DNA from: a virus | Length of the DNA stretch: 64,000 nucleotides | Direction: 5' to 3' (one strand) | Virus record (IMG/VR): IMGVR_UViG_3300002461_000841 | Span: 503 to 64,502 of that record | Part shown: positions 19,433-52,854 of the stretch, one piece after another | Numbering within the stretch: the first letter of the stretch is position 1 | Layout of the letters: each line of letters starts with the position of its first letter | Position numbers and translations under genes: made by a program | The notes under the pieces: generated by a model | Told to the model about the DNA's origin: nothing | What the model saw: the letters and a program-made list of their open reading frames with translations, nothing else | Database searches by the model: none

Positions 19433-19800
19433 GCAACACCACTGCCGAAGAAATGGTCAAAGCGCTCGTCGCCGATGTGATGTTGAAGGCGCTCGACGAG
19501 GCGAAGTTCGAGGAGCTTCGTAAGGGCGCGATCAAGTACCTGCTCGAACCTGAACCACCGTCTAGCCTCGCTTTTGGGGCAAAGCCGGGACCGAGCCGGC
19601 TCGTCGCGATGTTCAATCAGCAGGTCTCGGAGTTGGCGCACAAGGAGCTCAAGAAGTACGTCGCGGACGACGAGGGCATTCGTGACGCGATTCGGGCGGC
19701 GGCCAAGCGCATCATCGAACGACTCATGACCGACGAGCTCGTGCTCGACACCGTTGCTGGCAAGCTCGTCGAAGGTATCCGCCAGCTCAGTTGGCGCTAG
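19429..19800 (+). CDS. Hypothetical helical protein
   Basis: GGAGG SD and ATGA overlap. Confidence 0.6.
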   Translation: MSNTTAEEMVKALVADVMLKALDEAKFEELRKGAIKYLLEPEPPSSLAFGAKPGPSRLVAMFNQQVSELAHKELKKYVADDEGIRDAIRAAAKRIIERLMTDELVLDTVAGKLVEGIRQLSWR

Positions 19801-20039
19801 GACTTCGAGTCTTCGCGGATCAGTTTCACCGTACGGAACACGGTGATCAGCGCGGAGACGGCGACGGCGAACGTCGATACCAGCGAGAGTGCGAACACGC
19901 GATCGTTGTGGGCGTTCATCGTCGCCATGACGTCTTCGATCGAGGCCGGCGCGGTCTGAACGACGGGCACCGTCGGCATGGTCGACGTTCCGGCCGGCAG
20001 CGACGCGCGCGAGTCGCCGAGGCCCGTGATGATCATCAT
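19797..20039 (-). CDS. Small C-terminally anchored protein
   Basis: TGaTACGTT 7 nt before ATG; C-terminal hydrophobic helix. Confidence 0.55.
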   Translation of the reverse strand: MMIITGLGDSRASLPAGTSTMPTVPVVQTAPASIEDVMATMNAHNDRVFALSLVSTFAVAVSALITVFRTVKLIREDSKS

Positions 20040-20234
20040 GGGGTATAACGTATCATGGGCATATCGGACCACGTCGAACCGTTGCACGCCGCTGATTGTG
20101 ATCGCGGTGCAGGCCCGGAGTTTCGTGTTGGCGGGCGCCTGATCAGACTGACGGCGGGCTACACAATCGGTATCGACCTGAACACCCGCCAGCGCATCAC
20201 GCAATGCAATGCGTGCTCTGGTATCGCGGTCGAT

Positions 20235-20468
20235 CTACTTGCCGAGAGCGCTCGCGATGAGGCCGACGGTGAGCGCCACCACGAACGAGCCGCCACCGAC
20301 GAGCCCGATCAGGTCCCACCGGATGCGCGCTGACGTGATGGGCGCGCCGAGCCCGGCGAGCCGCGCGAAGTCACGCTGGTACGGGTTCATGACGACGGTG
20401 GCGCCGGCGAACTGCACCGTCGTGGTGCCGGGCGCGACGCCGACCGACTGCGCGAAACGGATGGCCAT
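20235..20468 (-). CDS. Small C-anchored protein carrying a copy of the putative capsid N-terminal motif
   Basis: VGVAPGTTTVQ; TAGGCT 6 nt before ATG; C-terminal TM. Confidence 0.65.
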   Translation of the reverse strand: MAIRFAQSVGVAPGTTTVQFAGATVVMNPYQRDFARLAGLGAPITSARIRWDLIGLVGGGSFVVALTVGLIASALGK

Positions 20469-20483
20469 GGGCTTAGCCTACCA

Positions 20484-20684
20484 TTAGCGCGCACGTCGCC
20501 GTTCGATACCGCAGGCTTCACTCTTGGCCGTGCGTTCGCTACGCACCATGAACGGAGTCCCACCACGTTCAAAGACCTGCCACAGACCCCGCTTGAACTG
20601 CGTGATCTTGACGTTGCCTTGCTTGGTCGTGAACTGCTTTTGGGTGGTGGTGCTGGTGTTACGGAGCGCGCACTGTTTGGCCAT
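20484..20684 (-). CDS. Small basic protein
   Basis: K/R-rich; TAGGCT 6 nt before ATG. Confidence 0.55.
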   Translation of the reverse strand: MAKQCALRNTSTTTQKQFTTKQGNVKITQFKRGLWQVFERGGTPFMVRSERTAKSEACGIERRRAR

Positions 20685-20693
20685 GCGCTCAGC

Positions 20694-20942
20694 CTACCAC
20701 TTGAACGGTAGGTGCTGCGTGCGCTTGTAGGCGATGAACCCGAGCCCGAGCCCTAGGCCGCCGACGAGGAGCGAACCGAGAATGTATGGCTCGATCGAGG
20801 CCTTGATGGTCGGGATGGCTTCCTCAGCGCCTGCCTTCGCTTGCGCGCGAATGTAGGCCTCGAACTCGGCGAGCTTCCGGTTGACGTTGGCGCCGCCAGG
20901 GATGAGCGCCAAGAGTTCCTTGAGGTCATCCTGAACCGCCAC
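20694..20942 (-). CDS. Small C-anchored protein
   Basis: Ends PYILGSLLVGGLGLGLGFIAYKRTQHLPFKW. Confidence 0.6.
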   Translation of the reverse strand: MAVQDDLKELLALIPGGANVNRKLAEFEAYIRAQAKAGAEEAIPTIKASIEPYILGSLLVGGLGLGLGFIAYKRTQHLPFKW

Positions 20943-20945
20943 GGG

Positions 20946-21224
20946 TTAGCCCTTGCTGCGCTTGTAGAGCTTGTAGCCGCCGAACGCGATGAGCGCGAGC
21001 CCGACGATGACAAGCCACGTCGGGAGCTGGCGGCCGAAGATGGTCATCGTTCCGCTCGAGGCGCTTCCCGCCGAGGCGCCCTGGGGCCAGAAGCCAGGGG
21101 TCACCGTCGGCGCTTGCGAGGCGAACAGGTTGCCCACGATGGTGTGGGTGGCCGCTGCGTTGAACGTCGCGGCGGTTGGAATGGCTCCGAGCTGGGAATC
21201 GTCGACGGGCTTCATGATCATCAT
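20946..21224 (-). CDS. Small C-anchored protein
   Basis: Ends PTWLVIVGLALIAFGGYKLYKRSKG. Confidence 0.6.
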   Translation of the reverse strand: MMIMKPVDDSQLGAIPTAATFNAAATHTIVGNLFASQAPTVTPGFWPQGASAGSASSGTMTIFGRQLPTWLVIVGLALIAFGGYKLYKRSKG

Positions 21225-21226
21225 AG

Positions 21227-21466
21227 CTACTTGACCTTCTTCTTGTAGAGCGCGACACCGCCGACGCCGCCGGCAACGAGGAGGCCGATGCCCCACCACT
21301 TCTTGTACCAGGGCGTTGTCGCCGCGTTGATCGCGGCCTGGATGTTGGCCCCCGCAGCGGCGAACACCTGCTTGGGCTGGGATTGGTAGAATGCGACGCA
21401 GACGGGGTCATTCGGCGCGATCGCGCAGATGTCCGTCTCGCCGAGCGAGCGCCCCATGAGCAGCAT
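21227..21466 (-). CDS. Small C-anchored protein
   Basis: Ends PWYKKWWGIGLLVAGGVGGVALYKKKVK; TAATG coupling. Confidence 0.6.
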   Translation of the reverse strand: MLLMGRSLGETDICAIAPNDPVCVAFYQSQPKQVFAAAGANIQAAINAATTPWYKKWWGIGLLVAGGVGGVALYKKKVK

Positions 21467-21963
21467 TACGCTGCCGCCTTGCGCGGGGCCAGCACGAGCT
21501 TGTACGTGCCGAAGCCGAGGAGCGCGATGAGCACGATGCCGATGGGCGTCTTGTACCAGCCCGGCGCGAAGAACCCGACCGTGGTCGGCGTCGGCGCTGT
21601 GGGGGTGGTCGGCGCCGGGGGGTTCTGGCGGAACTTCACGGCCGCCGTGTTCGCGGCGACGGTGAGGGGGCCCGCGTACTGCGTGATCAGCGACTTCGCC
21701 TGTGAGGTGCTGCCGCCAACCGCGAGGCCAGCCTGCAGCACGACGTAGAGCCATGTCGGAAGCTGTTCGGAGAGGAGCCCAAGTGCGGCGGTCACGGCCG
21801 CGATGGTCTGGGATCCGACGATGCCGTCGATCGGCCCAGGGTTGATAGCGGGGCGAAGGGTCGCTTTCGCGAGGTTCGCGAGCGCGGTCTGCAGGCCAGA
21901 CACCGACGATGAGCCGCCGAGCTGGACGCCATGCCCCGCATCTTGAAGGCCGTAGTGCAACAT
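21466..21963 (-). CDS. Peptidoglycan-binding-domain protein with C-terminal anchor
   Basis: VSGLQTAL...PGPIDGIVGSQTIAAV (PG_binding_1 pattern); C-terminal TM. Confidence 0.65.
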   Translation of the reverse strand: MLHYGLQDAGHGVQLGGSSSVSGLQTALANLAKATLRPAINPGPIDGIVGSQTIAAVTAALGLLSEQLPTWLYVVLQAGLAVGGSTSQAKSLITQYAGPLTVAANTAAVKFRQNPPAPTTPTAPTPTTVGFFAPGWYKTPIGIVLIALLGFGTYKLVLAPRKAAA

Positions 21964-21990
21964 GGCCCTCAGCCTATCACGAGTCGCGCG

Positions 21991-23466
21991 TTAGCTTTTG
22001 CCGCTCGCTAGGATGGCCCCCGCCGCGAGTGCGCCACCGACGATGATGGGCCACGGGACGGTAGACGCCGCTTCGGTGGTCTCGGTGAACTCTTCGGGGA
22101 TCGGGGTTGGCGCGGGCGGCTGGGTCCAGAATTTACACCACGTCGAGATGGCGACATTGGCGGCCGTCACGGCGGCCTGCTCGGCGCTCGTCGGTGGGGT
22201 GCACTTGCAGAGGGCCTCACCCGGCTTGCACGTCTTGCCAGTGCTCTGATTTGAGCAAAGCGTCGACGCCAGCGAGGTGTTGTGCGACTGGATCGCGGTC
22301 TGGTTGGCGCAGATCATGTCGCCCATGGACCGCATCAGGCTAGCGAGCCCGTCGATGGCATCCTGATACCAGGCCTTGTCGTAGGGCGTGATCTTGAACG
22401 TGTAGCGCCGCGCGGCCCCGACGATCACGGAGATGTTGCGATAGCCCCCCATGGCGACGTTCAACCGGAAGGCTTGGCCGTCCTTGGTCTTGCAGAACTC
22501 GTGGCCCTTCTTGTTCGGTCCGCGCCCGAACGTCGGCATGAACTTCGTTTGTGCTGGGTACTCGCCACGAAGCACCGTGGCGTCGAGGAAGTAGCCGCCG
22601 CGCTCGAGGTACGCGAGGGCGCCCCCCTGATTTTTGCGTTCGGAGATCGAGGGGGCGATTGGGTTCAAGCTGTAGCCGGGGTAGTCGACAACCCAGCGAC
22701 CACTGGCGAGGAGCTCGTCAACAGAGTGAAACTTGGTGACCGTCTCGAGGCGCCCGCCGCCGGCGGTGTAGATCTTGACCCCTTTCGAGAACACGTTAAC
22801 GAGGCCTGATGGGCGGCTCGCCGATCCGGTCAGGTTGTCTTCGATACCGTCATCATTCAGGTCCCAGTCGATCTGGTCGCCGAACACGTCACGCGTGATG
22901 TTCGCCTGCGATCGAATGTAGAGCTGGAAGTCGACGGCGAACTGTTGATCGGTCGTGAGTGTTTGGGCAGTAGTGAACGCTTCGGTCTGCAAGCTCGTGA
23001 TCGGGAACGCGACTGTGTTCCAGGCGAAGAAGCCGTAGGGCACAAGCAACGTGTCGATCCCAAAGCTGCCGGCGGTGTAGGGCCATCCGTAACGGTACGG
23101 GGTGCTGAAACTCTTGGCGTTCGATCCGCAGTCCACCGTGGCCACGGCGGCAAGCGCGCGGCTAACAGCCTTGAGGCGTTCGGCGCGCTTCAACACGAAC
23201 TGGCCGTGTGCACGCTGGATCTCGGCGCGGGTGTCGCCGGCCGTCGAGATCTTGGGCATGCACATGAACCCGTTGGGGCCCGGAGTGCCGGGGACGCCGG
23301 CGCGCGCGCGCTGCCAGTGGCCCGCTACGGTGGCCGTAGCCGTTGCCCATGTGTACCCGGGGGGCGGATTCCCACAGGCGACCTCGGTCGCATTGGGGGT
23401 AGATGCTGCCGCGGCAATGACCTGGGCGGCATCGGCGCCGTCCTTGATGAAGTCGAAAAGGCCCAT
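21991..23466 (-). CDS. Large C-anchored putative virion protein with Cys-rich segment
   Basis: LCSNQSTGKTCKPGEALCKC...WCKFW; ends VPWPIIVGGALAAGAILASGKS. Confidence 0.65.
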   Translation of the reverse strand: MGLFDFIKDGADAAQVIAAAASTPNATEVACGNPPPGYTWATATATVAGHWQRARAGVPGTPGPNGFMCMPKISTAGDTRAEIQRAHGQFVLKRAERLKAVSRALAAVATVDCGSNAKSFSTPYRYGWPYTAGSFGIDTLLVPYGFFAWNTVAFPITSLQTEAFTTAQTLTTDQQFAVDFQLYIRSQANITRDVFGDQIDWDLNDDGIEDNLTGSASRPSGLVNVFSKGVKIYTAGGGRLETVTKFHSVDELLASGRWVVDYPGYSLNPIAPSISERKNQGGALAYLERGGYFLDATVLRGEYPAQTKFMPTFGRGPNKKGHEFCKTKDGQAFRLNVAMGGYRNISVIVGAARRYTFKITPYDKAWYQDAIDGLASLMRSMGDMICANQTAIQSHNTSLASTLCSNQSTGKTCKPGEALCKCTPPTSAEQAAVTAANVAISTWCKFWTQPPAPTPIPEEFTETTEAASTVPWPIIVGGALAAGAILASGKS

Positions 23467-23504: not shown

Positions 23505-25178
23505 ATGAAGCCCATCTCGGCGCAGCAGCGCAATCAGGTCGCATGGGTCTCGGGCGCCGCGGGTGTCGCCCTCCTCATCCTCGGCGGTGCGATGTACGCC
23601 CGCGAGCGCAAGCTTGGCCGCTCCGGGGGCGGACTTGGGCGCGGCGCGCGCGTCGCGCAGGCCCCGATCCTGAACACGTACTCCGACGGCAACATGCGCG
23701 CGGTGCTCCGCGGCGCGCCCGAGATGCCGATCGAGCAGCGCGTGGCGACGATTCAGGAGCTCATCGAGAAGTCGATCCAGGATCCGCAGATGCGCAAGGT
23801 CGCGCTCGAGGCCACGCGCAACTGCCCCGAGCGCGATGGGCTATGCGAGGCCAAGGCGATCTACGACTACGTCAAGAAGCGCGTCCGCTACACGGGCGAC
23901 ATCGCGCCGATCAAGTGGGCCGATGGCACCGTCGATGGCGTCGACCTCTACCAGACCGCGCGCCGCACGCTCGAGTTCGGTGGGGGTGACTGCTTGCCGA
24001 TCTCCGCACTCGTTCTGACCGACAACTACGAGCTGGTGCCGCTCATCGAGCTGGAGCCCGGACACCGCATCATGGGTGATGGCGGTTGGGCGACAGTGCA
24101 GGATCGCTGGCTGACGGGCGAGAAGCGTCTGCTCGCGTTCGAGCTCTCGAACGGGTGCGTGCTGCGCTGCACGCCCGAGCATCGCATCTTCCGCAACGTC
24201 GCCGGGCGCGTCGAGGAGATTCGTGCGAGCGAGGCGCGTCCTGGCGATGACCTCGTGATGGCCGACAAGATTCCAGTGGCCGGCGAGGATGGCCACGAGT
24301 GGCCAGAGGTCGCGCGGGGGCTCACCGACGACGAGCGCTCGTGGTTGCTCGGTACGTTCGTCGCTGACGGATGGGCCGATGGGAAACAGACCAAGGAAGG
24401 CTTTGCGCCATACCGCATCGGCATCTCCGGCCGTGACGGGCAGCTCAAGGAAGCGCAGAAGCGTGAAGTCGAGGCGCTCATGGCCAAGATCGGCGTCGCT
24501 ACGCGTTGGCATGAGAAGTACATCGCGGTCAACGATTCGGCGTTGGCGTGCTTCTTCGCGGGTGCCGGCAAGCTCGCGCGTAACAAGCACGTGCAGTCGC
24601 TCAAGCAAGTTTCCGAGGATCAGGTCCACGCACTCATCCGGGGCCTAGCTGCGGACGCTGACAACCGCAATGGTGTGTTCGGTACGACATCCGTGAAGCT
24701 CGCGTTGCAGCTTCGGGTGCTCCATCGCATGGTCGGATTCGGTACGCACATCAGTCGCGTCGACAACCACGGCGGGCTCGGAACGCATCCGGTTTATCGG
24801 GTGACGCCGCGCTTTGTCGCCGAGCGGCGTGATCATGAGTTCGCACGGATTCGTGCCATCGCTGATGGTGGCGTGGAGCTCTGCATGGACCTCACCACCG
24901 ACACGGGCAAGTTCTGGTTGCCAGAGTCGGACGTGCTCGTGCACAACTGTGACGACCACACGATCCTCACGTCGACCCTGCTCGCGCTCAACGGCGTCAC
25001 GCCGCGGATCCGCGTGACCAAGGAGTCGCGTCGCGGCGACTGGTCGCACATCTACGTCGGGGCGCTCCTGCCGAAGTTCGGCGCCGGCAAGTTCGTCGCC
25101 GTCGACACCACGCTGCCGGGTGACGCGAGTTTCGGCGTTGAAGCTCCGTACGCCAAGCACGTCGATTTCGACGCGTAG
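23505..25178 (+). CDS. Membrane-anchored transglutaminase-like (papain-fold) enzyme interrupted by an intein
   Basis: N-terminal TM; spliced GGD|CDD, WSHIY, VDTT give a Cys-His-Asp triad. Confidence 0.8.
   Translation: MKPISAQQRNQVAWVSGAAGVALLILGGAMYARERKLGRSGGGLGRGARVAQAPILNTYSDGNMRAVLRGAPEMPIEQRVATIQELIEKSIQDPQMRKVALEATRNCPERDGLCEAKAIYDYVKKRVRYTGDIAPIKWADGTVDGVDLYQTARRTLEFGGGDCLPISALVLTDNYELVPLIELEPGHRIMGDGGWATVQDRWLTGEKRLLAFELSNGCVLRCTPEHRIFRNVAGRVEEIRASEARPGDDLVMADKIPVAGEDGHEWPEVARGLTDDERSWLLGTFVADGWADGKQTKEGFAPYRIGISGRDGQLKEAQKREVEALMAKIGVATRWHEKYIAVNDSALACFFAGAGKLARNKHVQSLKQVSEDQVHALIRGLAADADNRNGVFGTTSVKLALQLRVLHRMVGFGTHISRVDNHGGLGTHPVYRVTPRFVAERRDHEFARIRAIADGGVELCMDLTTDTGKFWLPESDVLVHNCDDHTILTSTLLALNGVTPRIRVTKESRRGDWSHIYVGALLPKFGAGKFVAVDTTLPGDASFGVEAPYAKHVDFDA
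23991..24947 (+). mobile_element. 319-aa intein with LAGLIDADG-type endonuclease region
   Basis: Starts CLPIS, block B CTPEHRIF, LLGTFVADG and IRGLAADAD, ends VLVHN followed by Cys. Confidence 0.92.
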
Positions 25179-25394
25179 CTAGCGCTTGCAGGCGACCGCG
25201 GCGCGCGCGCCCTTGGTCGTGATCTCGTAGTGCTTGCTCTTGGGCGAAATGCGCTTGATGTAGCCGCCTCGCACGAGCTTGCTGACCGATCCTTTGGGGG
25301 CGCGGCGCGAGATGTCGCTCGCCGGGAAGGAATGCCCCCGTTGAAGCGAAATGGTGCGAGCGAGCTGCAGCAGCGAGCAACTGACGTTTGCCAT
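25179..25394 (-). CDS. Small basic protein, winged-helix-like
   Basis: VSKLVRGGYIKR...YEITTKG; TACGTT 5 nt before ATG. Confidence 0.5.
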   Translation of the reverse strand: MANVSCSLLQLARTISLQRGHSFPASDISRRAPKGSVSKLVRGGYIKRISPKSKHYEITTKGARAAVACKR

Positions 25395-25424: not shown

Positions 25425-25841
25425 ATGTTTCAGCTCGCCGGTACCGAGATCGAGACCAGCACGCTCAACTCCGAGATTGATGGCCTGATCAGCCGCTACG
25501 GCGACCCCAGCCGGGTCGATAGCTCGGCGGTCGCCAACTTCCTCGAGCTGTACCCCGCCAGCCAGCGTGACCTTGTCGGGCGCGCGCTGGTCGGCAAGGG
25601 CATCTCGAACGTCGCTGTCGCCAACGCGCTCCGGTGGAACGACACCACGAGCGCGTTCGCGCGGAACAAGAGCACGATCCTCGGCGTGCTCTCGCTCGCG
25701 AGCGCGGCAGCGTGCGGCTTCCACGGCTACCGCCGCAACAACTCGTACGGCTGGGCGGCGGCCTGGTTCATCCTCGGGGGCATCTTCCCCGTGTTCACCC
25801 CTGTCGTGGCCCTTGCCCAAGGGTTTGGCAAGCCCAAGTAG
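25425..25841 (+). CDS. Membrane protein with two C-terminal helices
   Basis: TAGGCT 7 nt before ATG; two hydrophobic segments around YRRN. Confidence 0.65.
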   Translation: MFQLAGTEIETSTLNSEIDGLISRYGDPSRVDSSAVANFLELYPASQRDLVGRALVGKGISNVAVANALRWNDTTSAFARNKSTILGVLSLASAAACGFHGYRRNNSYGWAAAWFILGGIFPVFTPVVALAQGFGKPK

Positions 25842-25863
25842 CCTCGTGATAGCGTAAGCGCTC

Positions 25864-26193
25864 ATGGCGAAGAACACCTTCATGAGTGGCCGGCTCAAGA
25901 TCAACGTCGGCTTCAACGATCGCACTGATTCCTATCGGGTGCGGTTGTGCCCGACCCCGGTGACGCGTCCGGCGAACCGCAAGGAGTTCCCGTGCCAGAC
26001 CGTGACGGTGAGCCTACCCAAAGCCGGCGCGCGTAGCCGCCATGGCAAACGTCTGGCCGTCGACGATCCACGCGCATTCATGAGCGCCGCGAAGGCTGGT
26101 ATCTCGTTCGCGCGGCAGGACATCCAAGACTTCGCTGATTGGAAGGGGCACGGCGCTGTCGTGCGCCCGCCGAAGCGCAAGCGTCGCCGGTAG
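25864..26193 (+). CDS. Basic hypothetical protein
   Basis: TGaTAGCGT 8 nt before ATG; ends PPKRKRRR. Confidence 0.6.
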   Translation: MAKNTFMSGRLKINVGFNDRTDSYRVRLCPTPVTRPANRKEFPCQTVTVSLPKAGARSRHGKRLAVDDPRAFMSAAKAGISFARQDIQDFADWKGHGAVVRPPKRKRRR

Positions 26194-28503: not shown

Positions 28504-28511
28504 TCTTGACC

Positions 28512-46200: not shown

Positions 46201-47317
46201 CAACAATGTCTCGTTCGGGATGAACGGGGACACGATCACCGCCACGGCCACGTTCGCGCAGTCGACAAACCTTGCCGCGCTCGCCGCGGCTGGCGGCACG
46301 ATCACGACCGGGACCGCGAGCTTCTCAAACGCCAACGGCGTGAGCTTCGGCGTGAACGGCCAGACCGTCACCGCCTCGGTGGCGGCACAGACGGCGTTCC
46401 AGTTGTCGAACAGCAACGGGATCTCGTTCGGCACGAACGTCTCTACCGTCACCGCGACCTTCGCGGGGATCAAGAGCGTCTCGGGCGGCACCACCCAGGT
46501 CACCAACGGCGAGCTCGTGCTCTCCAACGCCAACGGAGTGACCTTCGGCGTCAACGGCAACACCGTCACCGCCTCGGTCGCCGCCGGCGGTGGCGGTGGG
46601 GTTGCAATCTCCGCCGGCACCCAGACCGCGACGTCGGGCACGGTCGTGTTCTCGAACTCCAACGGCGTCTCCTTCGGTCTGAACGGCCAGACCGTCACCG
46701 CCGCCGTTGGCAAGGTCGCGAACATCAGCTACTTCACGGCACACAACTTCCTCAGCGCATCGGGCGCGGCCGTGGTCACCACCTCCGGCAATCTCAGCCT
46801 GCAGCGCATCGTCGTGAACGCACCGCTACCGGCCACGCGCCTCGAGATATTTGCCAGCCACACGGTGAACGGCAGCCAGGCCGGCTCATACACGATGCGC
46901 GCCGCGCTCTACTCCATGGCGGGCACGTACATCACGCAGCTGTCCAGCAACTCGCAGTCGTACACCTTCGGTACGGGGTCGACCAACTCGTTCTCGGTGT
47001 ACGGCGGCCACTCTGGCATCCGCTCGCGCAGCATGTCCGTGAGTTGGTCGATCGAGCCGGGCGAGTACATGCTCGCCCTGATGATCTCGAACTCCAACCC
47101 GGCTGGCACGACGGGCTCGTGGACTGTGTATGGCAAGTCGGTGCTCGCGCAGTTGGCGCCTATCGGCACGAATGGAACGAGTAACCAGGTCTGGAAGGAC
47201 TGCGTCTATACGGCGTCGGCTTCGAGCTTCATGGACAGCATCCAACTGGTCCAGGTGCAACAGTCCGTCACTGGTGCCCTGCGCCAGCCCTACGTCGAGC
47301 TGGCCGGCACGTTCTAA
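43262..47317 (+). CDS. Spike/fibre protein 4 (about 28 repeats plus head)
   Basis: MADTQP start; long S/T/G/A/N repeat shaft; WSIEPGEY; QPYVEL. Confidence 0.8.
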   Translation: MADTQPQVTGSYASVQDGTSTLGIQRLVVGRSDDAGGHTIQFGQSTNPLELHAPTGPYTLTLPQGNGRLGLVSAIVVSDQTFTNGQVAFGVSNGLTWGISTDGSSATITGSIPLYSSVSFANANNVTFGLAGSTLTASASYSQSTGPGAISADGGAITSGTVLFSNSNGVSFGVAGQTVTASVAAQSVAPGALAAGTQTATSGTVVFSNSNGVTFGMSGSSQITASYSQSTAPSAVGAGVSNITSGSVYFSNSNNVTFGANGQRITASASFAQSTAPGAIAAGTQTATSGTVVFSNSNNITFGMSGSSRITASASFPAETPFGVSAGTQSVSTGTLVFSNSNGVTFGMSGSSQVTASVSSVVFSNSNNITFGLNASTLTASASYSQSTAPGAFAAGTQTATSGTIVLANSNGLTFGMSGSSQITGSYSQSTAPSAIGVAASTASSGTVVFGDANNLTFGMVGNTVTASASFPAQSTAPAAISAAGSSVSSGTVVWSNSNNVSFGMNGNTITATATFAGGGIAAAAGTQTATSGTVVLANSNGLTFGMSGSSQVTGSFSTVVFSNSNNVTLGYNAGTLTASASFPAETPFGVSAGTQSVSTGTLVFSNSNGVTFGMSGSSRVTASVSSATFSNSNNVTFGVNAGTVTASASFSQSTAPSAISAAGASASSGTVVFSNSNNVSFGMNGNTITATVTTPSQVPFGVSAGTQSVSTGTLVFSNSNGVTFGMSGSSRVTASVSSVVFSNSNNITFGLNAGTLTATATFSQSTAPAAISAAGSSVSSGTVVWSNANNVSFGMNGNTITATATFAGGGGVAAAAGTQTATSGTVAFADSNGLSFGMSNSSQITASFEAIKSVVAGTQTAVGPQLSFNNSWGVLFGMVNSASITARLQFDNAFAAGGNVQFGVTNSSIWGSAPAPITLSAGTNVIAVGTAVFSNSNGVSFGINGNTITASVAPGGGGGVAVSAAGSSASTNTIVWSNFNNVSFGMNGDTITATATFAQSTNLAALAAAGGTITTGTASFSNANGVSFGVNGQTVTASVAAQTAFQLSNSNGISFGTNVSTVTATFAGIKSVSGGTTQVTNGELVLSNANGVTFGVNGNTVTASVAAGGGGGVAISAGTQTATSGTVVFSNSNGVSFGLNGQTVTAAVGKVANISYFTAHNFLSASGAAVVTTSGNLSLQRIVVNAPLPATRLEIFASHTVNGSQAGSYTMRAALYSMAGTYITQLSSNSQSYTFGTGSTNSFSVYGGHSGIRSRSMSVSWSIEPGEYMLALMISNSNPAGTTGSWTVYGKSVLAQLAPIGTNGTSNQVWKDCVYTASASSFMDSIQLVQVQQSVTGALRQPYVELAGTF

Positions 47318-47895
47318 GGCTTCACGGCTTGGAGCTTGGCCTCCCAGTCGCTGATCTGGTTGATCTGGTGGGTCATCTTGAGCCGTGCCGCGTCGGGGTG
47401 CAGGAGCGTCAGATCCTGGCTGACCATCGGGTTCGCGCCGCCGATGAAGTTGCACCGCACGTTGTAGTGATCGAGCATGTTGCCCTTGCGGAACTCGGGG
47501 TTCAGGTACGCGAACGTCTCGGCGACGATGTAGCGCGTGTGGGTCGGGTCCTGAAAGCCGCGGTTCGAGAACGCGTTGGGGACGACGATCGTCATCCAGG
47601 CCCCGGGGGCCATGATGCGCCAGCACTCGTCGAAGAACGCGAAGAACGGGTTCTGCCCGTTGACGAGTGGGTACTGCGGGATGTGCTCGATGTAGTGGGA
47701 GCAGTAGAGCTCGGCGACGCTCGAGTCCGGGATCGGGGCGCCATCGACCTGCCACGGGAACTGGTTCAGGTCCCACACGTGCTGGGCCTTCTCGTAGATG
47801 TCGATGCCCTCGAAACCCTCGCGCGGGCGTTGGCCGCAGGCGAGATCGAAGCGGCGAGTAGCGGTGGGCTGAGCGATGATCGGGGGCGTCGTCAT
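47314..47895 (-). CDS. Class I SAM-dependent methyltransferase (type 11-like)
   Basis: DLACG motif I; SHYIEH; ECWRIM.PG; DPTH. Confidence 0.75.
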   Translation of the reverse strand: MTTPPIIAQPTATRRFDLACGQRPREGFEGIDIYEKAQHVWDLNQFPWQVDGAPIPDSSVAELYCSHYIEHIPQYPLVNGQNPFFAFFDECWRIMAPGAWMTIVVPNAFSNRGFQDPTHTRYIVAETFAYLNPEFRKGNMLDHYNVRCNFIGGANPMVSQDLTLLHPDAARLKMTHQINQISDWEAKLQAVKP

Positions 47896-48950
47896 GGGAG
47901 CTGCAAAACCTTTCTGATGTGGGAGCCAACAGCGGTGTAGGAGAAACGTTCCGGGAAGTCGTAGAAGAGGGATTGAGCGGGCCGTGCCGTCGTCGCGCGC
48001 TGCATCGCCAGCGCGAGCTTGGCGTGGTTAACGGTGATCCAAGCGTCGCGGCACGACAGGCCCTGTGGGCGGTGCCCGTCGCAGATGACAAGATCCGGCC
48101 GGCTCTCGACGAGTTGCGCCGACGCGGAGCTCAAGAAGAAGTCGCTGCCGAGGCCCATCGGGGCGATCACGTGTTTGCCCGCGAGCACGGCCTCGAACGC
48201 GGCCAAGCCCCAGGCTTCGCCGTGGCTCGCGGTCACGAAGCAGTCGTGATTGCGCAACGTCGCGTTGCGCCGATCGGGCGGGAAGTCATCGTGTACGACG
48301 CGCAGGGCCGGCAAGTCTGAGGCCCCGATCGCAGCGATCTTGGTCGCATCGTCGAGCTCCTGGCTGTACGCGCCACGCAGGTAGAGCGTGAGCTCGACGG
48401 GGTCTGCGGTCTTGAACGCGGCCGTGTACGCGCACAAGAGCCCGCGCAGATTCTTCCGCGGGGAGCTGTCGCCGCGGTAGTAGAACCGATAGAGGGGGCT
48501 CGGCGTGGCCGGTTGCTGGTGATCGCGGTCTGCATTGTACGCGTGCGGGATCCAGTCCGTGAATGGCTTCGGGCTGGGGGTCGGGCTCCACACATGATCG
48601 AACTTGGCGAGCGCGGCAAGGAGCGCTGGGTCCGTGGGGGTGGCGACGCCCTCCCACGTCGTGTAGACCGCCGTCTCGACGCCATCGAAGCGCGAACTAT
48701 CCATGCGCAGGGATTCCAGCTCGCGCGCGGCGGCGAGTGGCTGCAGATGGATGAGCAGGAGATCCGGCGTGCGCGTCCAGCGATTGAAGTGCGGCGCAAG
48801 CGGGGCTGCGTCGCCTTCCCAGCCTGCCATCGCGCCGTGGCGCCCGATGTCCAGTTCGATGCCGGCGGCGAGGATCGATCGGCACAACCCGGTGCCTGCC
48901 TCGCCGTAGCCTGAGCGCCCGCCAACGTGGCCGTAGTAGCGGATCAGCAC
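47892..48950 (-). CDS. GT-B fold (family 4-like) glycosyltransferase
   Basis: SGYG, RKNLRGLL, DCFVTASHGEAWGLAAFEA; start moved to GTG 48950. Confidence 0.75.
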   Translation of the reverse strand: MLIRYYGHVGGRSGYGEAGTGLCRSILAAGIELDIGRHGAMAGWEGDAAPLAPHFNRWTRTPDLLLIHLQPLAAARELESLRMDSSRFDGVETAVYTTWEGVATPTDPALLAALAKFDHVWSPTPSPKPFTDWIPHAYNADRDHQQPATPSPLYRFYYRGDSSPRKNLRGLLCAYTAAFKTADPVELTLYLRGAYSQELDDATKIAAIGASDLPALRVVHDDFPPDRRNATLRNHDCFVTASHGEAWGLAAFEAVLAGKHVIAPMGLGSDFFLSSASAQLVESRPDLVICDGHRPQGLSCRDAWITVNHAKLALAMQRATTARPAQSLFYDFPERFSYTAVGSHIRKVLQLP

Positions 48951-48954
48951 ACGA

Positions 48955-49773
48955 TCACCACATCTGCTTGCCGGTGGGGTCCGCGAGATCGATGTGCCCG
49001 ACGCGAACGCGCGTGTCGACGGCGAACCGCTTGCCTTTGCGCTTGGCCTTCTCGCAGAAGTAGAGATCCTGCGTGAACCCGACCGGGCCCTTCTCGGGGA
49101 TGATGTCCGAGAGAGTCTGGAACCACGGGCCCTCGATGTCGCGGAACAGGTCCATGCGGTACAGCGAGCAGCCCATCGCGATCCCATTGACCTCGACGAT
49201 GTTGCCGTTCGCGAGCGCGCTGCGGATGTCGCGCGGCCGGAACTCGAGCTCGCCCGTGCGCCGGAAGTGTTCGGGGTCGCCGTACGCCATCGGCATGTTG
49301 AAGTCGCCCTTGGTGAAGTAGAGCCCACCGACGGCATCGAAGCTGCCCGCCTCGATCGCTTCGAGCAGCCGCACGTGGGCGTCGGGCGGCACGAGGTTGT
49401 CGCTCTCGAGCGTCAACACGTACTTCCATTTCGAGAGGTTCGGGTCGGCCAGGATGTTCTTGATCATCTGGTCGTACGCCACCCCGACCTCGTGCCCGAT
49501 GACGTAGAACTTGGCGCGCTTGCCGTTCATCGGCGCGATGAGGCTGTCCCAGGCCTGAACGATGCGCCAATGGAACTTGTGGTCGCGCTCGGGGATGATG
49601 ATGATCGTCGAGTTGTCCTTGTAGGTGGAGCCGGGGATCATCTCGACGCGCTCGAAGCCAAGCATGCGATCGCGCTCCATCGCGGTTTCGATCGCAACCT
49701 TGCCGGTTGCATCGGCGACGGCGCTCGCCGCCGGCAGCGTCACGGACTTCGGGGTAACGTCTTCGTTGGCCAT
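48955..49773 (-). CDS. GT-A fold (family 2-like) glycosyltransferase
   Basis: YVLTLESDN; QDLYFC...VDTRVRVGH; same family as 17929..18630. Confidence 0.7.
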   Translation of the reverse strand: MANEDVTPKSVTLPAASAVADATGKVAIETAMERDRMLGFERVEMIPGSTYKDNSTIIIIPERDHKFHWRIVQAWDSLIAPMNGKRAKFYVIGHEVGVAYDQMIKNILADPNLSKWKYVLTLESDNLVPPDAHVRLLEAIEAGSFDAVGGLYFTKGDFNMPMAYGDPEHFRRTGELEFRPRDIRSALANGNIVEVNGIAMGCSLYRMDLFRDIEGPWFQTLSDIIPEKGPVGFTQDLYFCEKAKRKGKRFAVDTRVRVGHIDLADPTGKQMW

Positions 49774-49852: not shown

Positions 49853-50170
49853 ATGGAACCCAATCCCTCCTCTTGGACTGATTTCTTCAAGTCGGAGCGC
49901 GGCGTGTTCGCGCTCGCGCTCCTCATCGCGGCCACGGTGCTCGTCGCACTTGGGCACTTCACATCCGAGCAGTGGAAGGAGTTCGCACAGTGGATCGCTG
50001 CCTTCTACCTCGGCGGCAAGAGCCTCACTGGTGCGGCGATGCTCATCGCGAACCGGCCGGTGACCCTCACTGGTGCGGTGATGCCCATCGCGAACCGGCC
50101 GGTGACCCCGACCGTCATCACCAATCCGCCCACCACCAACACCACCACCGTCGTCACCCCGAACGTCTAG
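49853..50170 (+). CDS. Holin-like membrane protein with 14-aa tandem duplication
   Basis: Hydrophobic helices; TACCGT 6 nt before ATG. Confidence 0.5.
   Translation: MEPNPSSWTDFFKSERGVFALALLIAATVLVALGHFTSEQWKEFAQWIAAFYLGGKSLTGAAMLIANRPVTLTGAVMPIANRPVTPTVITNPPTTNTTTVVTPNV
50023..50106 (+). repeat. 42-bp tandem duplication (40/42 identical)
   Basis: 50023-50064 vs 50065-50106. Confidence 0.9.
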
Positions 50171-50182
50171 GAAGGCCCACCC

Positions 50183-50626
50183 ATGAAGCCCCTCAAGTCG
50201 ATCGCCAAGTTCGCCCTCGTCCTCTGCCTGCTCCTCGGTCTGCCCATGTGCGGACCGCCGACGTACGTCGACCCCGTGACCCACGAAGAGATCGCGTGCT
50301 CCGAGCTGCCCGCCGTCACCCTCGAGACGACCATCGCGGAGCTCGCCCAGGTCTACAGCACGAAGGGCTTGCCAGGCGTCTACACGTACGCGCTCGGCAA
50401 GGGCGTCGCTTACGGCGGCTGCGCGCTCGCGTACTTCCTGAATGACCTCCTCACCGTCACCCCCGGCGAGCAACCGCTTTCCGATGCGGAGGCCGTCGCG
50501 GCGCGCAAGACACTCGAGGACGCACGCGCCGAGTTCTTGCGACTCGAACAAGACAAAGCGCTCAAAGCCACGCAGAGCCCGCCGCGTCGGATCATCTGGA
50601 TCGATGCCGAGGGCCACGCGCTGTGA
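50183..50626 (+). CDS. Exported/lipoprotein-like protein
   Basis: Signal-like N-terminus ending ...LGLPMC. Confidence 0.5.
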   Translation: MKPLKSIAKFALVLCLLLGLPMCGPPTYVDPVTHEEIACSELPAVTLETTIAELAQVYSTKGLPGVYTYALGKGVAYGGCALAYFLNDLLTVTPGEQPLSDAEAVAARKTLEDARAEFLRLEQDKALKATQSPPRRIIWIDAEGHAL

Positions 50627-51411
50627 TCTTCGAGGCGCCGCTCGTTGGGCCGCTCGGGGTCTCGCATAGCAAGACGGACTCGCGCACGATCAAGCTCGCC
50701 CAGGTCGCTGTGCGCCGGCCCCTGCGGGCCCCGCCATCGAAAGCGATCTGGGGCGTCCTGCCCACGGGCGGTGTCGTCAAGCGTGGCGAGGCGTACGGCA
50801 ACACCGAGATCGGCAACTGCGTGTTCGCCGAGTGGGGCGGCGTCGACGAGACCGTGTGCGCGCACACCGGAGCGCCGCGCAAGGTCACGCGTGATGTCGC
50901 GATCCAAGGATACTCCGACTACACGAACTACGATCGCGCTACCGGCAAGGGCGACGACGGCTCTTCGATGTACGATGGGATCAAGTGGGCCAAGGCGATC
51001 GGGCTCATCGATGCGTTCGCGCAGATCGAGACGGGCGACGCCGTGCAGTGCAAGGCCGAGATCGAGCTCGCCGTACACTTGACCATGAGCGCCCAGCTCT
51101 CCGTCGCGATGCCGATCGCGTGGCAGTCGCGCAAGGTCTGGGACTCGGCGCCAGCGCAGGGCCGCGATCGGACCTGGGAGTACGGCTCGTGGGGCGGTCA
51201 CGCGATCTCGGTGATCGACTATGACCAGCGCGGGCTCTGGGTCTTCACGTGGGGCGGCGTGAAGTTCATGACGTGGGAAGGCTACCTCTCGTACCGCAAG
51301 AGCGACGCTTACGTCGGCTTCCATCACGCGCTCGCGCGCATGCCCGATGGAAGCCCCACGCCGTGTGGCCTCTACGCATCCGAGATCAAGCGCATCCTCG
51401 CGGGCCTCTGA
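50623..51411 (+). CDS. Papain-like cysteine peptidase (possible endolysin)
   Basis: GNCVFA (Cys), GGHAI (His), FTWG; next to holin-like gene. Confidence 0.6.
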   Translation: MIFEAPLVGPLGVSHSKTDSRTIKLAQVAVRRPLRAPPSKAIWGVLPTGGVVKRGEAYGNTEIGNCVFAEWGGVDETVCAHTGAPRKVTRDVAIQGYSDYTNYDRATGKGDDGSSMYDGIKWAKAIGLIDAFAQIETGDAVQCKAEIELAVHLTMSAQLSVAMPIAWQSRKVWDSAPAQGRDRTWEYGSWGGHAISVIDYDQRGLWVFTWGGVKFMTWEGYLSYRKSDAYVGFHHALARMPDGSPTPCGLYASEIKRILAGL

Positions 51412-51540
51412 TCACAGCCGCAGAATGGGCGGCTGAGCGGGTTTCGCGCGCTTGGGAATGGCCTCGTGATCACGCCCGCAAGCCGTTTGATTTCGCCCCC
51501 CTACCACGTGTACGGTGACAGGTAAGGAGCGAACCAACGC

Positions 51541-51993
51541 ATGGCTATCACCGCAACTCTGGTGGCTGCCGGTAACAACCGGCTCCGCTACCTCCTCTCG
51601 ACGGCAGTCACCACCGCCGACTCGGTCACGATCTCGACCAGCGGCGCGGCGACGCCCGATGTTCGTACCGACTCGCCCGCGGGTCCGATCAAGGCCCTCG
51701 CGCTCGCTGCCGTCAACGGCTACGGGGAGATCGGCCCGGCGAGCATCACCCAGGCGCAGAGCCGGCAGCTCTGGCTGTCGGACAACGGCGATTCGTTCGG
51801 CCCTTCGGTCCGCCCGTCGACGGGCGAGCTCCCGACGGCGCAGTGTACGATCGAAGATCGTACGAGCGGCGCAACGTTCTGGGCCGTCGACGCCAACGTG
51901 TCGGGCGCGAACCCGACGATCGTCGTCAACTCGTTGGGCGCTGCCGGGACGGCGTACCTCGACATCTTCATCCCCGGCGCGATCGGAGCCTAA
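51541..51993 (+). CDS. Beta-rich virion-type protein, paralog 1 of 3
   Basis: TAAGGAG SD; N.LRY, ATPD..TDS.AGPIK, GYG, TQA.AR.LW. Confidence 0.7.
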   Translation: MAITATLVAAGNNRLRYLLSTAVTTADSVTISTSGAATPDVRTDSPAGPIKALALAAVNGYGEIGPASITQAQSRQLWLSDNGDSFGPSVRPSTGELPTAQCTIEDRTSGATFWAVDANVSGANPTIVVNSLGAAGTAYLDIFIPGAIGA

Positions 51994-51996
51994 GTC

Positions 51997-52425
51997 ATGG
52001 CCGTTACCGCTTCCATCGTCTCCATCGGGCACAACCGCCTTCGGTATCGGATCACGCAGGACGGCACCGCCGGCACCACCGTGACCATCACCTCGAGCGG
52101 TGGCGCGACGCCCGACCTCAAGACGGATTCCGTCGCGGGTCCGATCAAGGCGCTCACCAACGCGCCGACGACGGGCTACGGCAGCATCGCCGCTGGCGCG
52201 CTCACTCAGGCCAACGCCCGCACGCTGTGGCAGGCGAACGGCTCGGGCACGAGCCCGTTGCCCTACGCGCGCTGTCAGCTCACCCAGCGCAGCGGAGACC
52301 CCGCGGCTACCTGGGCCGTCGACTCCAACGTGTCGACCGGCATCCCGACGATCGTCGTCACCGCCCCGTCGACGGCGGGCACGGCGTACCTCGACGTCTA
52401 CATCCCTGGCCAGATCGGAGCCTAA
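51997..52425 (+). CDS. Beta-rich virion-type protein, paralog 2 of 3
   Basis: Same motifs; TAAGTCATG junction. Confidence 0.7.
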   Translation: MAVTASIVSIGHNRLRYRITQDGTAGTTVTITSSGGATPDLKTDSVAGPIKALTNAPTTGYGSIAAGALTQANARTLWQANGSGTSPLPYARCQLTQRSGDPAATWAVDSNVSTGIPTIVVTAPSTAGTAYLDVYIPGQIGA

Positions 52426-52428
52426 GTC

Positions 52429-52854
52429 ATGGCGATCACCGCAGCTCTCGTTGCCTCGGGCAACAACTTCCTCCGCTACCTCGTCACGTCCACATCCGGC
52501 GGCGGCGAGGCCGTCACGATTACGTCGACGGGCGCCGCGACGCCGGACCTCCTGACCGACTCCGCCGCGGGGCCGATCAAGAAGATCGCCAGCGTCAAGA
52601 CGGCCGGCTACGGCAAGGTCGCCGCCGGCACCACGATCACGCAGGCGCTCGCGCGGTCGTTGTGGCTCTCGGATGCCGCCGCGACGAACCTGGGCCTGCA
52701 GGGCGCCGCCTGTCGGGTGCAGGATCGCTCGGCGGTCGGCTTCGTCGTCGACGCCGTACAGGGCGTCGACACGGCAACGGCCTCGATCACGGTCACGGCC
52801 GCCAATGCGGGCACGTGCTACGTCGAGGTCGCGTTCGCCGGCGCCATCGGCTAG
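52429..52854 (+). CDS. Beta-rich virion-type protein, paralog 3 of 3
   Basis: Same motifs; TAAGTCATG junction. Confidence 0.7.
   Translation: MAITAALVASGNNFLRYLVTSTSGGGEAVTITSTGAATPDLLTDSAAGPIKKIASVKTAGYGKVAAGTTITQALARSLWLSDAAATNLGLQGAACRVQDRSAVGFVVDAVQGVDTATASITVTAANAGTCYVEVAFAGAIG

Follow-up and report, generated by a model that had tools for sequence, protein, structure and literature searches.

A gene module probably encoding the virion of an undescribed lineage of large tailless, internal-membrane viruses of bacteria

What kind of particle is assembled by a virus whose long structural region contains no recognisable gene for a tailed-phage head, a tail or a packaging motor? This question is raised by a stretch of 64,000 nucleotides (hereafter, the window), corresponding to positions 503-64502 of a 69,887-bp virus record with a G+C content of approximately 65% (IMG/VR IMGVR_UViG_3300002461_000841). 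To our knowledge, the genomes of bacterial and archaeal viruses that contain a membrane and lack a tail span about 10-44 kb, and large prokaryotic virus genomes are assumed to belong to tailed viruses. The analysis presented here leads us to consider it fairly probable that the region between 19.8 and 52.9 kb of the window holds the genes for virion, spikes and lysis of an uncultured virus from an undescribed and widespread lineage of large tailless bacterial viruses with an internal membrane, whose double-stranded DNA genomes may be circular or terminally redundant, with sizes of about 85-138 kb and possibly up to 221 kb. The record lacks terminal and inverted repeats and is therefore a fragment; a codon-bias gene caller predicted 106 genes in the window, with approximate starts.

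The argument begins with the protein of 235 amino acids encoded at 29889-30596 (plus strand), a candidate major capsid protein according to its AlphaFold2 model, its fold matches and its conservation. It is the most conserved structural protein, sharing 57-73% identity with its counterparts in the three relatives that were fetched whole. Its family comprises 396 homologous clusters at 90% identity, and the 120 listed are 63-94% identical, have 234-241 residues and lie in contigs of up to 179 kb. An exhaustive hidden Markov model (HMM) search of 1.84 billion representatives retrieved 188 clusters at 50% identity, with no double-barrel version among the best 150 of the 188, all of them having at most 333 residues. 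Every database name in the family is 'hypothetical protein', an NCBIfam search was empty, and tblastn of the protein against 50,697 phage records gave no match. The contigs of P0277 and P0310, two remote members of the family, are just as devoid of annotation and provide no bridge to a known virus group.

The model of this protein, built on an alignment of 43 sequences (predicted local distance difference test, pLDDT, 78; predicted template modelling score, pTM, 0.73), is an eight-stranded-type β-sandwich with an N-terminal arm. Foldseek returned nothing significant, its weak matches being nearly all jelly-roll capsid proteins. The model was also compared with 48,161 chains by VIA-align, which is independent of Foldseek, and in which a Z below 8 may mean merely a common arrangement and a Z of 8.4 is rated as 'middling'. 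A first search placed SPV1 at the top (Z 7.9, 148 residues), followed by HHIV-2 (7.2), STIV A223 (7.0), HCIV-1 (6.7) and P23-77 VP17 (5.7). In a second comparison SPV1 (6oj0_A) was the only match with a Z of at least 8, leading the next by 1.4 units (Z 8.4 over 146 of 178 residues, root-mean-square deviation 4.2), and SH1 (6.5), the P23-77 VP16-VP17 complex (6.2) and then poxvirus D13 and PBCV-1 were found behind it. The predicted fold is not that of HK97 but a single jelly roll, and the solved structures that it matches best are capsid proteins from viruses with an internal membrane. As a fold prediction the jelly roll can be regarded as secure; homology to any single virus cannot.

A second β-sandwich core protein, of 179 residues (31801-32340, plus strand), is a candidate second capsid or vertex (penton) protein. 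Its ESM Atlas model is a β-sandwich (pTM 0.75), with Cep192_D3/FixG_C, GOLD and Cu2_monoox_C domains as neighbours, as found for the 235-residue model, and its homologue is kept downstream of the capsid gene in 22 loci. In a language-model feature search, both proteins had the PM2 P2_N/P2_C clusters as their closest neighbours with a Pfam domain, with a weak score (0.77). The original prediction had singled out these two as β-rich capsid candidates, and both turned out to be real, conserved genes, one with a jelly roll predicted by AlphaFold2 and the other with the β-sandwich of the Atlas.

How large are the genomes in which these genes reside? IMG/VR holds 18 related loci. Direct terminal repeats are present in four records of 85,650, 85,185, 85,269 and 137,914 bp, a fifth repeat-ended record has 123,913 bp, and a linear relative of 221 kb is rated complete. 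Among the three relatives fetched whole, the terminal repeats found measure 90 and 123 bp, which fits circular or terminally redundant genomes. Thus, the earlier guess of a relative much larger than known viruses of this kind is exceeded by the lineage, whose repeat-ended genomes have 85-138 kb and whose single linear record rated complete has 221 kb.

A common core was defined by all-against-all BLAST between the contig of the window and the three whole relatives. Its replication part consists of PolA (fused to uracil-DNA glycosylase, UDG, in the 85-kb genome), DUF669, a Sak4-like ATPase, a PD-(D/E)XK nuclease, an SNF2 helicase and a Walker-A protein of 439-561 residues. On the virion and right-hand side are the Gly-rich protein encoded at 29129, the proteins of 235, 179 and 117 residues, the anchored protein at 37317, a small transmembrane protein at 49904 and the integrase, to which a coiled-coil-looking protein (15140-17197), a GT-A-like protein, a transglutaminase-like protein and the membrane protein at 25425 have to be added. 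Across relatives, down to 46% capsid identity, the genes follow a fixed order: the small basic protein comes first, then the Gly-rich membrane protein and the jelly roll, which one to three small genes separate from the second β-sandwich and the 117-residue protein. A further core protein, of 307-337 residues, was seen only in relatives.

Profile scans were run at several scales. Pfam and PHROG were first applied to the ten largest proteins encoded in 19797-52854; a second PHROG scan took in 60 proteins of 13.2-52.9 kb together with 59 from the matching block of a complete relative and matched 37 families, and the statements below rest on the best 25 of these. For the complete 85,650-bp relative (G001), 121 of its 136 proteins were scanned against PHROG, matching 88 families, the best 25 of which were examined. 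In addition, six-frame HMM searches of relatives used the Terminase_6N, TerL_ATPase, Phage_portal, Phage_capsid and FtsK_SpoIIIE models, with control genomes for the hallmark families giving signal.

The capsid candidates lie within a block enriched in putative membrane proteins. Taking a 17-residue stretch without charged residues as the criterion, a hydrophobic segment occurs in 14 of the 36 genes (39%) between 19.8 and 38.6 kb, versus 10 of 70 elsewhere in the window (Fisher p = 0.007), and in 14 of 34 block genes versus 11 of 102 others in the complete relative (p = 2e-4). The many small membrane-anchored proteins that had been noticed in the sequence are thus reflected in a measurable enrichment. 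Pure C-tail anchors followed by Lys/Arg are present in nine proteins, eight of them encoded within the block. Most conspicuous is an eight-gene leftward run (19797-23466, minus strand), in which six small proteins (77-165 residues) and one of 491 residues each carry a single C-terminal anchor followed by basic residues, the eighth being a small basic protein (20484-20684). The proteins of this run are partly conserved in relatives and have no Pfam or PHROG family, apart from a sub-threshold PG_binding_1 match in 21466-21963 (E 0.04). The 77-residue tail-anchored protein at 20235-20468 starts with SVGVAPGTTTVQF, a near copy of the N-terminal arm of the capsid candidate, TVGVAPGTTTIQM (the VGVAPGTTT arm), and could possibly serve as a membrane tether that mimics the capsid arm.

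A Gly-rich, strongly hydrophobic core protein (29129-29707, plus strand) is found in each of the four genomes compared in full and in 16 loci, always encoded immediately upstream of the capsid protein; it probably has several membrane-spanning stretches, is a candidate major virion membrane protein and matched no family in the Pfam and PHROG scans. Upstream of this pair, 28905-29087 (plus strand) encodes a basic, cysteine-containing protein of 60 residues that neighbours the capsid gene in 20 related loci and would be a candidate DNA-condensing or core protein. Together with the products of 20484-20684, 25179-25394, 25864-26193 and 36154-36417 (isoelectric points 11.3-11.6, Lys plus Arg 21-28%), it makes up a set of five small basic cysteine-containing proteins distributed across the block, most of which begin with MAK, and all five are candidates for condensing the DNA; 28905-29087 and 36154-36417 are conserved in relatives. 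Four small genes at 25425-26810 (plus strand) encode three membrane-anchored proteins, including the core protein of 25425-25841, and the very basic one (25864-26193).

The right-hand part of the block would provide host recognition and exit. Four paralogous spike or fibre genes (38603-47317, plus strand; 658, 432, 453 and 1351 residues) encode Ser/Gly/Thr/Ala-rich shafts with repeats of approximately 23-25 residues around a recurring FSNSNGVTFG motif, followed by a C-terminal head of about 180 residues common to the paralogues, which bears out the spikes that had been proposed. Between 38.6 and 47.3 kb the first codon position has a lower G+C content than the second; the plus-strand reading of these genes was accepted because their open reading frames are uninterrupted where those of the minus strand are broken. 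No Pfam or PHROG family is matched in 38603-47317, and partial homologues exist in the relative G4. They are followed by three leftward genes (47314-49773, minus strand), including two glycosyltransferases, one GT4-like (Pfam GT4-conflict, 2.6e-7) and the other GT2-like (Glycos_transf_2, 4.6e-3), which possibly glycosylate virion proteins. Three genes at 49904-51411 (plus strand) form a probable lysis cassette, made up of the small core protein with an N-terminal transmembrane segment, a lipoprotein-like product, in which a hydrophobic N-terminus is followed by LPMC (taken by eye as a lipobox), and a protein of 262 residues with a possible Cys/His peptidase pattern (50623-51411), matching PHROG 19005, of unknown function, at 3.5e-12.

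Which known virus does this set of genes resemble most? Judging from the predicted folds, the closest structural analogue is SPV1 (Portogloboviridae), a virus not named in the original prediction. SPV1 builds its shell from hexamers of the single-jelly-roll protein VP4 and pentamers of VP10, with an internal membrane, subcapsomer proteins and a coil of VP1 and DNA as nucleoprotein core, and functions can be assigned to only nine of its open reading frames, none of them a packaging ATPase (PMC8459092). Besides providing the best structural match of the 235-residue protein, SPV1 shares with the present lineage two small jelly-roll or β-sandwich shell proteins (here candidates), many small membrane proteins and glycosyltransferases, and the short terminal repeats of the relatives fit a circular genome such as that of SPV1. 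The membrane-protein enrichment, the small basic proteins and the missing ATPase would also be compatible with a membrane and nucleoprotein core of SPV1 type. In contrast, SPV1 has a 20-kb genome without replication proteins and is a non-lytic virus of hyperthermophilic archaea (PMC8459092), whereas genomes of this lineage, recovered from water-filter and other metagenomes, have 85-221 kb and their own PolA, helicases and recombination genes. Bacterial-type genes (an endolysin with GH25 and PG_binding domains, a sigma factor and the lipobox-like motif) are present in this lineage and point to Bacteria as the domain of its host. No sequence similarity between SPV1 and this lineage was found, a VP1 homologue not having been sought.

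The left arm of the window encodes DUF669, the Sak4-like ATPase, the PD-(D/E)XK nuclease and the SNF2 helicase, and in the complete 85.6-kb relative a Pfam search of the large unassigned proteins identified PolA-UDG, ThyX, a Dam methylase, a GH25 lysozyme with PG_binding_1, glycosyltransferases and a pilin-motif protein. The best 25 of its 88 PHROG families correspond to replication, nucleotide metabolism, regulators, an integrase, a pilin and spike domains. The pilin-like product of this genome, encoded at 11864-12916 of locus L023, is a protein of 350 residues with a type IV pilin N-methylation motif (N_methyl, 1.3e-10), and a sigma-factor PHROG is matched in the same genome. Taking these genes together with the D5-type primase-helicase described below, the Caudoviricetes-style replication that had been proposed for this virus is well represented.

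The absence of an FtsK/A32-like packaging ATPase that had been noticed in the window was confirmed there, and the search was extended to complete relatives with the same outcome. A census of Walker-A motifs in the complete relative found two canonical proteins only, the Sak4-like ATPase and the core protein of 439-561 residues. The FtsK_SpoIIIE search in five relatives produced only sub-threshold P-loop matches of 27-33 residues, one in the Sak4-like gene of G001 and the other in a 573-residue open frame of the relative G010; a dedicated Pox_A32/P9 profile was not run.

Could the core Walker-A protein itself be the packaging ATPase? Its family has 213 members, all in this virus group and some of them with inteins, and its AlphaFold2 model (48-sequence alignment, pLDDT 88, pTM 0.80) matched over its full length the primase-helicases African swine fever virus PrimPol, SCCmec Cch, NrS-1, SaPI5 and monkeypox virus E5 in Foldseek (E 1e-9 to 1e-7, probability 1.0). 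Because of this D5-type fold and its place in the replication module, the protein is considered a replicative helicase, and the 439-residue protein is ruled out as a packaging ATPase. In the window, the gene for this D5-type superfamily 3 primase-helicase lies at 6010-7565 (plus strand, start approximate) and appears frameshifted at 6266/6267, where public contigs from the same and other samples (three runs, and a fourth that shows it as loose ends) contain 38 extra bases that bring the gene back into frame; we attribute the break to a defect of assembly or a minor variant and not to a pseudogene. Several relatives of this helicase (P0130, P0143, P0171, P0233 and P0235) were recorded, some with 795-879 residues and Hom_end or intein-splicing domains.

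These results bear on a first alternative, namely a strict PRD1- or Sphaerolipovirus-type virus with a unique packaging vertex, whose ATPase would be too divergent to be recognised, supplied by the host, or replaced by the D5-like or Sak4-like protein in a second role. The Halopanivirales (Sphaerolipoviridae, Simuloviridae and Matsushitaviridae, with SH1, HHIV-2, HCIV-1, P23-77 and IN93) lack a tail, contain an internal membrane and have two capsid proteins of the single-jelly-roll type, particle traits that the genes suggest here as well. The 235-residue protein has their capsid proteins among its best fold matches (Z 5.7-7.2), and the Thermus phages P23-77 and IN93 demonstrate that this virus type occurs in bacteria (PMC6356626). 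However, Halopanivirales genomes measure 16-31 kb, compared with 85-221 kb here. Members of the order conserve an A32-like ATPase gene next to those for the small and the large major capsid protein, in this sequence. This gene order is absent from the present lineage, in which one to three small genes lie between the shell candidates, which show no mutual homology, and no FtsK/HerA-type ATPase was found.

Tectiviridae and Corticoviridae (PRD1, PM2) and other double-jelly-roll phages are also alike in being tailless, with an internal membrane, many small membrane proteins and vertex spikes, as the genes would indicate for the present lineage, and PRD1 P3 and PR772 match one barrel of the 235-residue model (Z 5.1-5.3). 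These families have a major capsid protein with a double jelly roll, the packaging ATPase P9 and genomes of 10-15 kb. In contrast, the 235-residue model consists of one barrel, the size limit found in its family being the one given above, and no packaging ATPase was found in the searches described above. The nearest bacterial precedent is SSIP-1, a tailless membrane-containing phage with PRD1-type architecture, two types of major capsid protein and a sequence unlike anything else (PMC6356626). It is a halophile, and genomes of the present lineage are 2-5 times larger. The above-mentioned tblastn search, the basis for saying that no similarity to SSIP-1 was found, used a collection in which the presence of SSIP-1 is unconfirmed. 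With approximately 44 kb, SSIP-1 is, as far as we know, the largest such prokaryotic virus.

The proposed parallel with the roles found in PRD1-like viruses and Halopanivirales stands as an analogy of folds and gene sets only; sequence homology is lacking, and the search for a packaging ATPase, which is a defining feature of Halopanivirales and Bamfordvirae, had a negative outcome. A strict PRD1-type virus, which the jelly-roll candidates, the membrane proteins and the weak PM2 neighbours would favour, seems unlikely to us, taking into account that the only FtsK/HerA-type signals are P-loop fragments in the five relatives, that the D5-like protein is a full-length primase-helicase of the replication module, and that the genomes are 3-10 times larger than those of any member.

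A second alternative is that of a tailed phage (Caudoviricetes) in which the head, packaging and tail genes have diverged past recognition, the jelly rolls being decoration, cement or fibre parts and the repeat shafts being tail fibres. The replication genes are typical of tailed phages, the ESM Atlas clusters of homologues are mostly labelled as Uroviricota, the cement proteins of phages KHP30 and KHP40, which are jelly rolls, match the 235-residue model at Z 5.6-6.1, and the large coiled-coil-looking core protein (15140-17197) could be a tape measure or a scaffold. In addition, one protein of a relative matches tail-spike, tail-fibre and 'tail protein' PHROGs. However, the large terminase is, of all phage genes, the one detected most reliably, and neither the four Pfam hallmark-family searches nor the PHROG scans gave a match in genomes with terminal repeats. 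Among the ten largest proteins of 19797-52854, terminase, portal, HK97 capsid and tail families were all unmatched, and no tube, sheath or tape measure was found in the profile searches of the 19.8-52.9 kb region. The virion-related matches, among the best 25 of 37 families in the block of the window and that of the relative, were restricted to receptor-binding families of tail spikes, fibres and appendages, an endolysin and a helix-turn-helix protein resembling the small terminase subunit (1e-6).

The remaining contig outside the block gave no large-terminase match in the Pfam and PHROG scans, and in the complete 85.6-kb relative terminase, portal and capsid were absent among the best 25 of 88 families. 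In six-frame searches of at least five relatives, Terminase_6N, TerL_ATPase, Phage_portal and Phage_capsid were without a match, which extends the absence of these families to five relatives besides the complete one, four of them with terminal repeats. As regards tail structure, PHROG families of this class were unmatched in the relatives (best 25 of 37 and best 25 of 88), with only spike or fibre receptor-binding families in one protein. Within the scope of these searches, the absence of terminase, portal, HK97 capsid, tail tube and sheath noticed in the window thus extends to its flanks and to repeat-ended relatives of 85.2-137.9 kb, where neither a large terminase nor a portal, an HK97 capsid or a tail module was recognised. 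Taking into account, moreover, that the protease families were likewise unmatched, that the two Walker-A proteins of the complete 85.6-kb genome are both assigned otherwise, and that dense tail-anchored membrane proteins inside structural operons are not a tailed-phage feature, we regard a tailed phage as quite improbable.

A non-icosahedral entity (an enveloped or pleomorphic virus, or a vesicle-transferred, integrative or conjugative element whose β-sandwich protein would be a surface, matrix or pilus-like subunit) would agree with the undetected packaging machinery, the many membrane proteins, the weak peptidoglycan-binding motifs, the integrase, the pilin-motif protein of a relative and the presence of Ena pilins and FlhE among the fold matches, but it is equally improbable in view of the lack of VirB4, TraG or relaxase-like Walker-A proteins in the census, the repeat-ended genomes of discrete sizes in IMG/VR, the endolysin, probable lysis cassette, long fibre genes and full replication module, and the capsid proteins that constitute the best fold matches.

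Several points weigh against a tailless icosahedral virus with an internal membrane. The membrane and the shape of a particle are not readable from sequence, and the record that holds the window is incomplete. The fold scores of the capsid candidate are modest (Z 8.4), and non-capsid jelly rolls (FlhE, GOLD, PHM, phage cement proteins and Ena pilins) score Z 5.5-7, interleaved with the capsids; a profile of its family against all PDB sequences gave nothing below E 0.8, and hence no link to solved capsid proteins. As a second shell protein, the 179-residue product is thinly supported, its fold coming from a ready-made Atlas model; hhalign detected no homology between the two families, and the prediction of a complex between both proteins scored 0.00, which is evidence in neither direction. 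The complete relative has one protein with matches to tail-spike and tail-fibre PHROGs (1e-10 to 1e-14); these matches are receptor-binding domains, yet they are compatible with a tailed virus too. Finally, one of the core proteins for which no fold is available (15140-17197, 21991-23466, 32383-32736, 38060-38599 and 51541-52854) could hide a portal or an unorthodox motor.

Returning to the tailless internal-membrane virus as the preferred reading, a model of the particle can be put forward. It would have a tailless icosahedral shell formed by the small single-jelly-roll protein of 29889-30596, with the 179-residue protein of 31801-32340 probably located at the vertices or acting as a second capsomer component. 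Under the shell there would be an internal lipid membrane with about 15 mostly C-tail-anchored proteins and the Gly-rich protein of 29129-29707, which together would tie the membrane to the shell, and the vertices would bear the long repeat-shaft fibres (38603-47317) for host recognition, the products of 49904-51411 acting in lysis. A motor-free assembly similar to that of SPV1 is proposed because neither terminase and portal nor an FtsK/HerA (A32/P9-type) ATPase was found. Instead of entering a ready-made shell by pumping, the DNA would first be condensed by small basic proteins, such as those of 28905-29087, 20484-20684, 25864-26193 and 36154-36417, and membrane and capsid would then be wrapped around it, as in the archaeal SPV1. 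Condensation by these proteins is the least supported step of the model, and it is advanced only tentatively. What the data show is the gene content, its conservation, the predicted folds and the lack of hallmark genes in complete relatives, from which the capsid role, the membrane, the missing tail and the packaging mode are inferred.

By its apparent architecture, the lineage would be placed close to SPV1 or to the Halopanivirales and PRD1-type viruses, and it lacks the tested defining traits of each group, because it has no double jelly roll or FtsK/HerA ATPase (Bamfordvirae, Halopanivirales), differs in genome size, host domain and replication genes (Portogloboviridae), and has no large terminase or HK97 capsid in window, contig or relatives (Caudoviricetes), some core-protein folds not having been modelled. 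The kind of architecture is known; what would be new is its occurrence in bacterial viruses far larger than the described jelly-roll internal-membrane tailless viruses, without a recognisable packaging ATPase. In the literature, no description of jelly-roll prokaryotic viruses of this size was found.

Other genes of the block complete this picture. At 23505-25178 (plus strand) lies an N-terminally anchored transglutaminase-like (papain-fold) core protein interrupted by an intein; its Pfam matches fall short of the curated cut-offs in every case, namely Intein_splicing (2.8e-5, residues 197-481), Transglut_core (1e-3) and LAGLIDADG_3 (8e-3), the latter reflecting the remnant of a LAGLIDADG homing endonuclease carried by the intein. 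Its homologues in all relatives examined are intein-free, have 229-281 residues and align as two flanking blocks. A transglutaminase-like protein is an unusual host protein for an intein. The papain-fold enzyme proposed for this region is partly sustained by this sub-threshold Transglut_core match, while the product of 50623-51411 matches only the unannotated PHROG. The anchored cell-wall hydrolase, also proposed, is weaker than had been suggested, since no hydrolase domain was detected and PG_binding_1 appears only below threshold in two anchored proteins, that of 21466-21963 and the C-tail-anchored protein of 37317-38060 (plus strand; E 0.11). The latter is followed, directly upstream of the spikes, by a β-rich protein of 179 residues (38060-38599, plus strand), whose ESM Atlas model is too poor for use (pTM 0.23); the synteny of this pair (37317-38599) is kept in loci L047 and L048, and both are candidate vertex or adaptor proteins.

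Downstream of the shell candidates, 32383-33642 (plus strand) encodes the β-rich core protein of 117 residues (32383-32736) and a protein of 297 residues with hydrophobic segments (32749-33642), neither of which belongs to a Pfam or PHROG family. A thioredoxin-like protein with a CPHC motif (34007-34372, plus strand; Pfam Thioredoxin_2, 3.8e-5, below cut-off) is kept in G1, G5 and loci from metagenome-assembled genomes (MAGs). Beside the capsid genes, an HTH_17 DNA-binding protein (27807-28355, minus strand; Pfam 9.7e-11), conserved in G1, G4 and MAG loci, may be either a regulator or excisionase-like protein or a DNA-recognition protein, and it is probably the source of the match to PHROG 57, 'terminase small subunit', mentioned above.

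To the left of the block, the core protein of 685 residues (15140-17197, plus strand) has a long Glu/Arg/Ala/Gln-rich helical stretch, a coiled coil by eye, and a Pro/Gln-rich stretch, and it is a candidate scaffold or core protein. A homologue without a family match is present in all relatives tested, in open frames of 669-825 residues or gene calls of 514-866. The possibility that its length acts as a ruler of capsid size was dropped, the trend with genome size being weak at best: the gene call of G001 (85.6 kb) has 514 residues and the open frames of the other two 85-kb genomes 669 and 724, with 711-729 residues in the genomes of 124-138 kb and 825-866 in the records of 196-221 kb.

At the right end, three tandem paralogues of 141-150 residues (51541-52854, plus strand), β-rich by eye and with the motifs MAITA..V..GNN.LRY (N-terminal) and YLD..IPG.IGA (C-terminal), are candidate virion-associated proteins; one or two copies occur in G1, in G4 and in the region of a Gemmatimonadota MAG, and a match to Invasin_D3 is at chance level only. 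RadC-like and ComM-like genes follow at 55436-57492. The ComM-like product has a 46%-identical homologue in the 221-kb relative, and the gene is therefore carried by more than one member of the lineage. A tyrosine integrase is encoded at the right end of the contig. Just beyond the window, at 64786-66389 of the record, a protein of 370 residues matches PHROG 1735 (1.7e-112) and its neighbour of 162 residues PHROG 2018 (1.3e-37), both families of unknown function. This gene pair is probably an accessory or defence-type cassette, because it is absent from the three fully compared relatives and adjoins the integrase.

With respect to its ecology, DNA nearly identical to positions 28500-33700 of the window (95-100% of sampled words) is found in activated-carbon metagenomes from 2015 and drinking-water metagenomes from 2024, belonging to two separate studies, and the same virus is partly present in biofilter metagenomes. 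Its recurrence across years and studies indicates that the virus is real and persistent. The capsid gene appears in MAG bins labelled as Actinomycetes, Polyangiales, Gemmatimonadota, Tessaracoccus, Alphaproteobacteria and Woesearchaeota, labels which are mutually inconsistent and are therefore attributed to binning noise; the Myxococcota-like host suggested by the original prediction is left unsupported. In a Gemmatimonadota MAG presented as a chromosome (CP070815.1), the structural module lies at 3.67-3.72 Mb and the helicase and coiled-coil genes at 2.25-2.26 Mb, and no capsid gene was found in 400 other genomes of Gemmatimonadota. This copy was rejected as a prophage or as evidence of a host, its modules being 1.45 Mb apart and unique among 401 genomes of the phylum, and CP070815.1 would be either a mis-scaffolded MAG or a collection of several elements. 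A separate locus of the same sequence (1,187,664-1,189,330) encodes, side by side, two remote homologues of the capsid protein (E 8e-7 and 2e-5).

What would such a lineage mean for our view of prokaryotic viruses? If the interpretation of a large tailless internal-membrane virus is true, the size limit of tailless membrane viruses is broken, and a major group of the virosphere has gone unrecognised, its members being now labelled as tailed phages by classifiers based on hallmark genes. The lineage is common in metagenomes, as its 396 capsid clusters at 90% identity indicate, and its persistence in drinking-water biofilters offers an accessible source for isolation. In its most far-reaching form, which we regard as doubtful, the proposal is that these are the largest non-tailed prokaryotic viruses (85-221 kb), apart from all named realms, and combine an SPV1-like shell and membrane with tailed-phage-like replication and motor-free enclosure of the DNA. 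The scaling of jelly-roll and membrane capsids, as well as the motor-free filling of large icosahedral shells, would become testable in bacteria. In sum, if the motor-free reading is also true, assembly around a nucleoprotein core would not be a peculiarity of archaea, but a strategy widespread in bacteria that can be scaled up to very large genomes.

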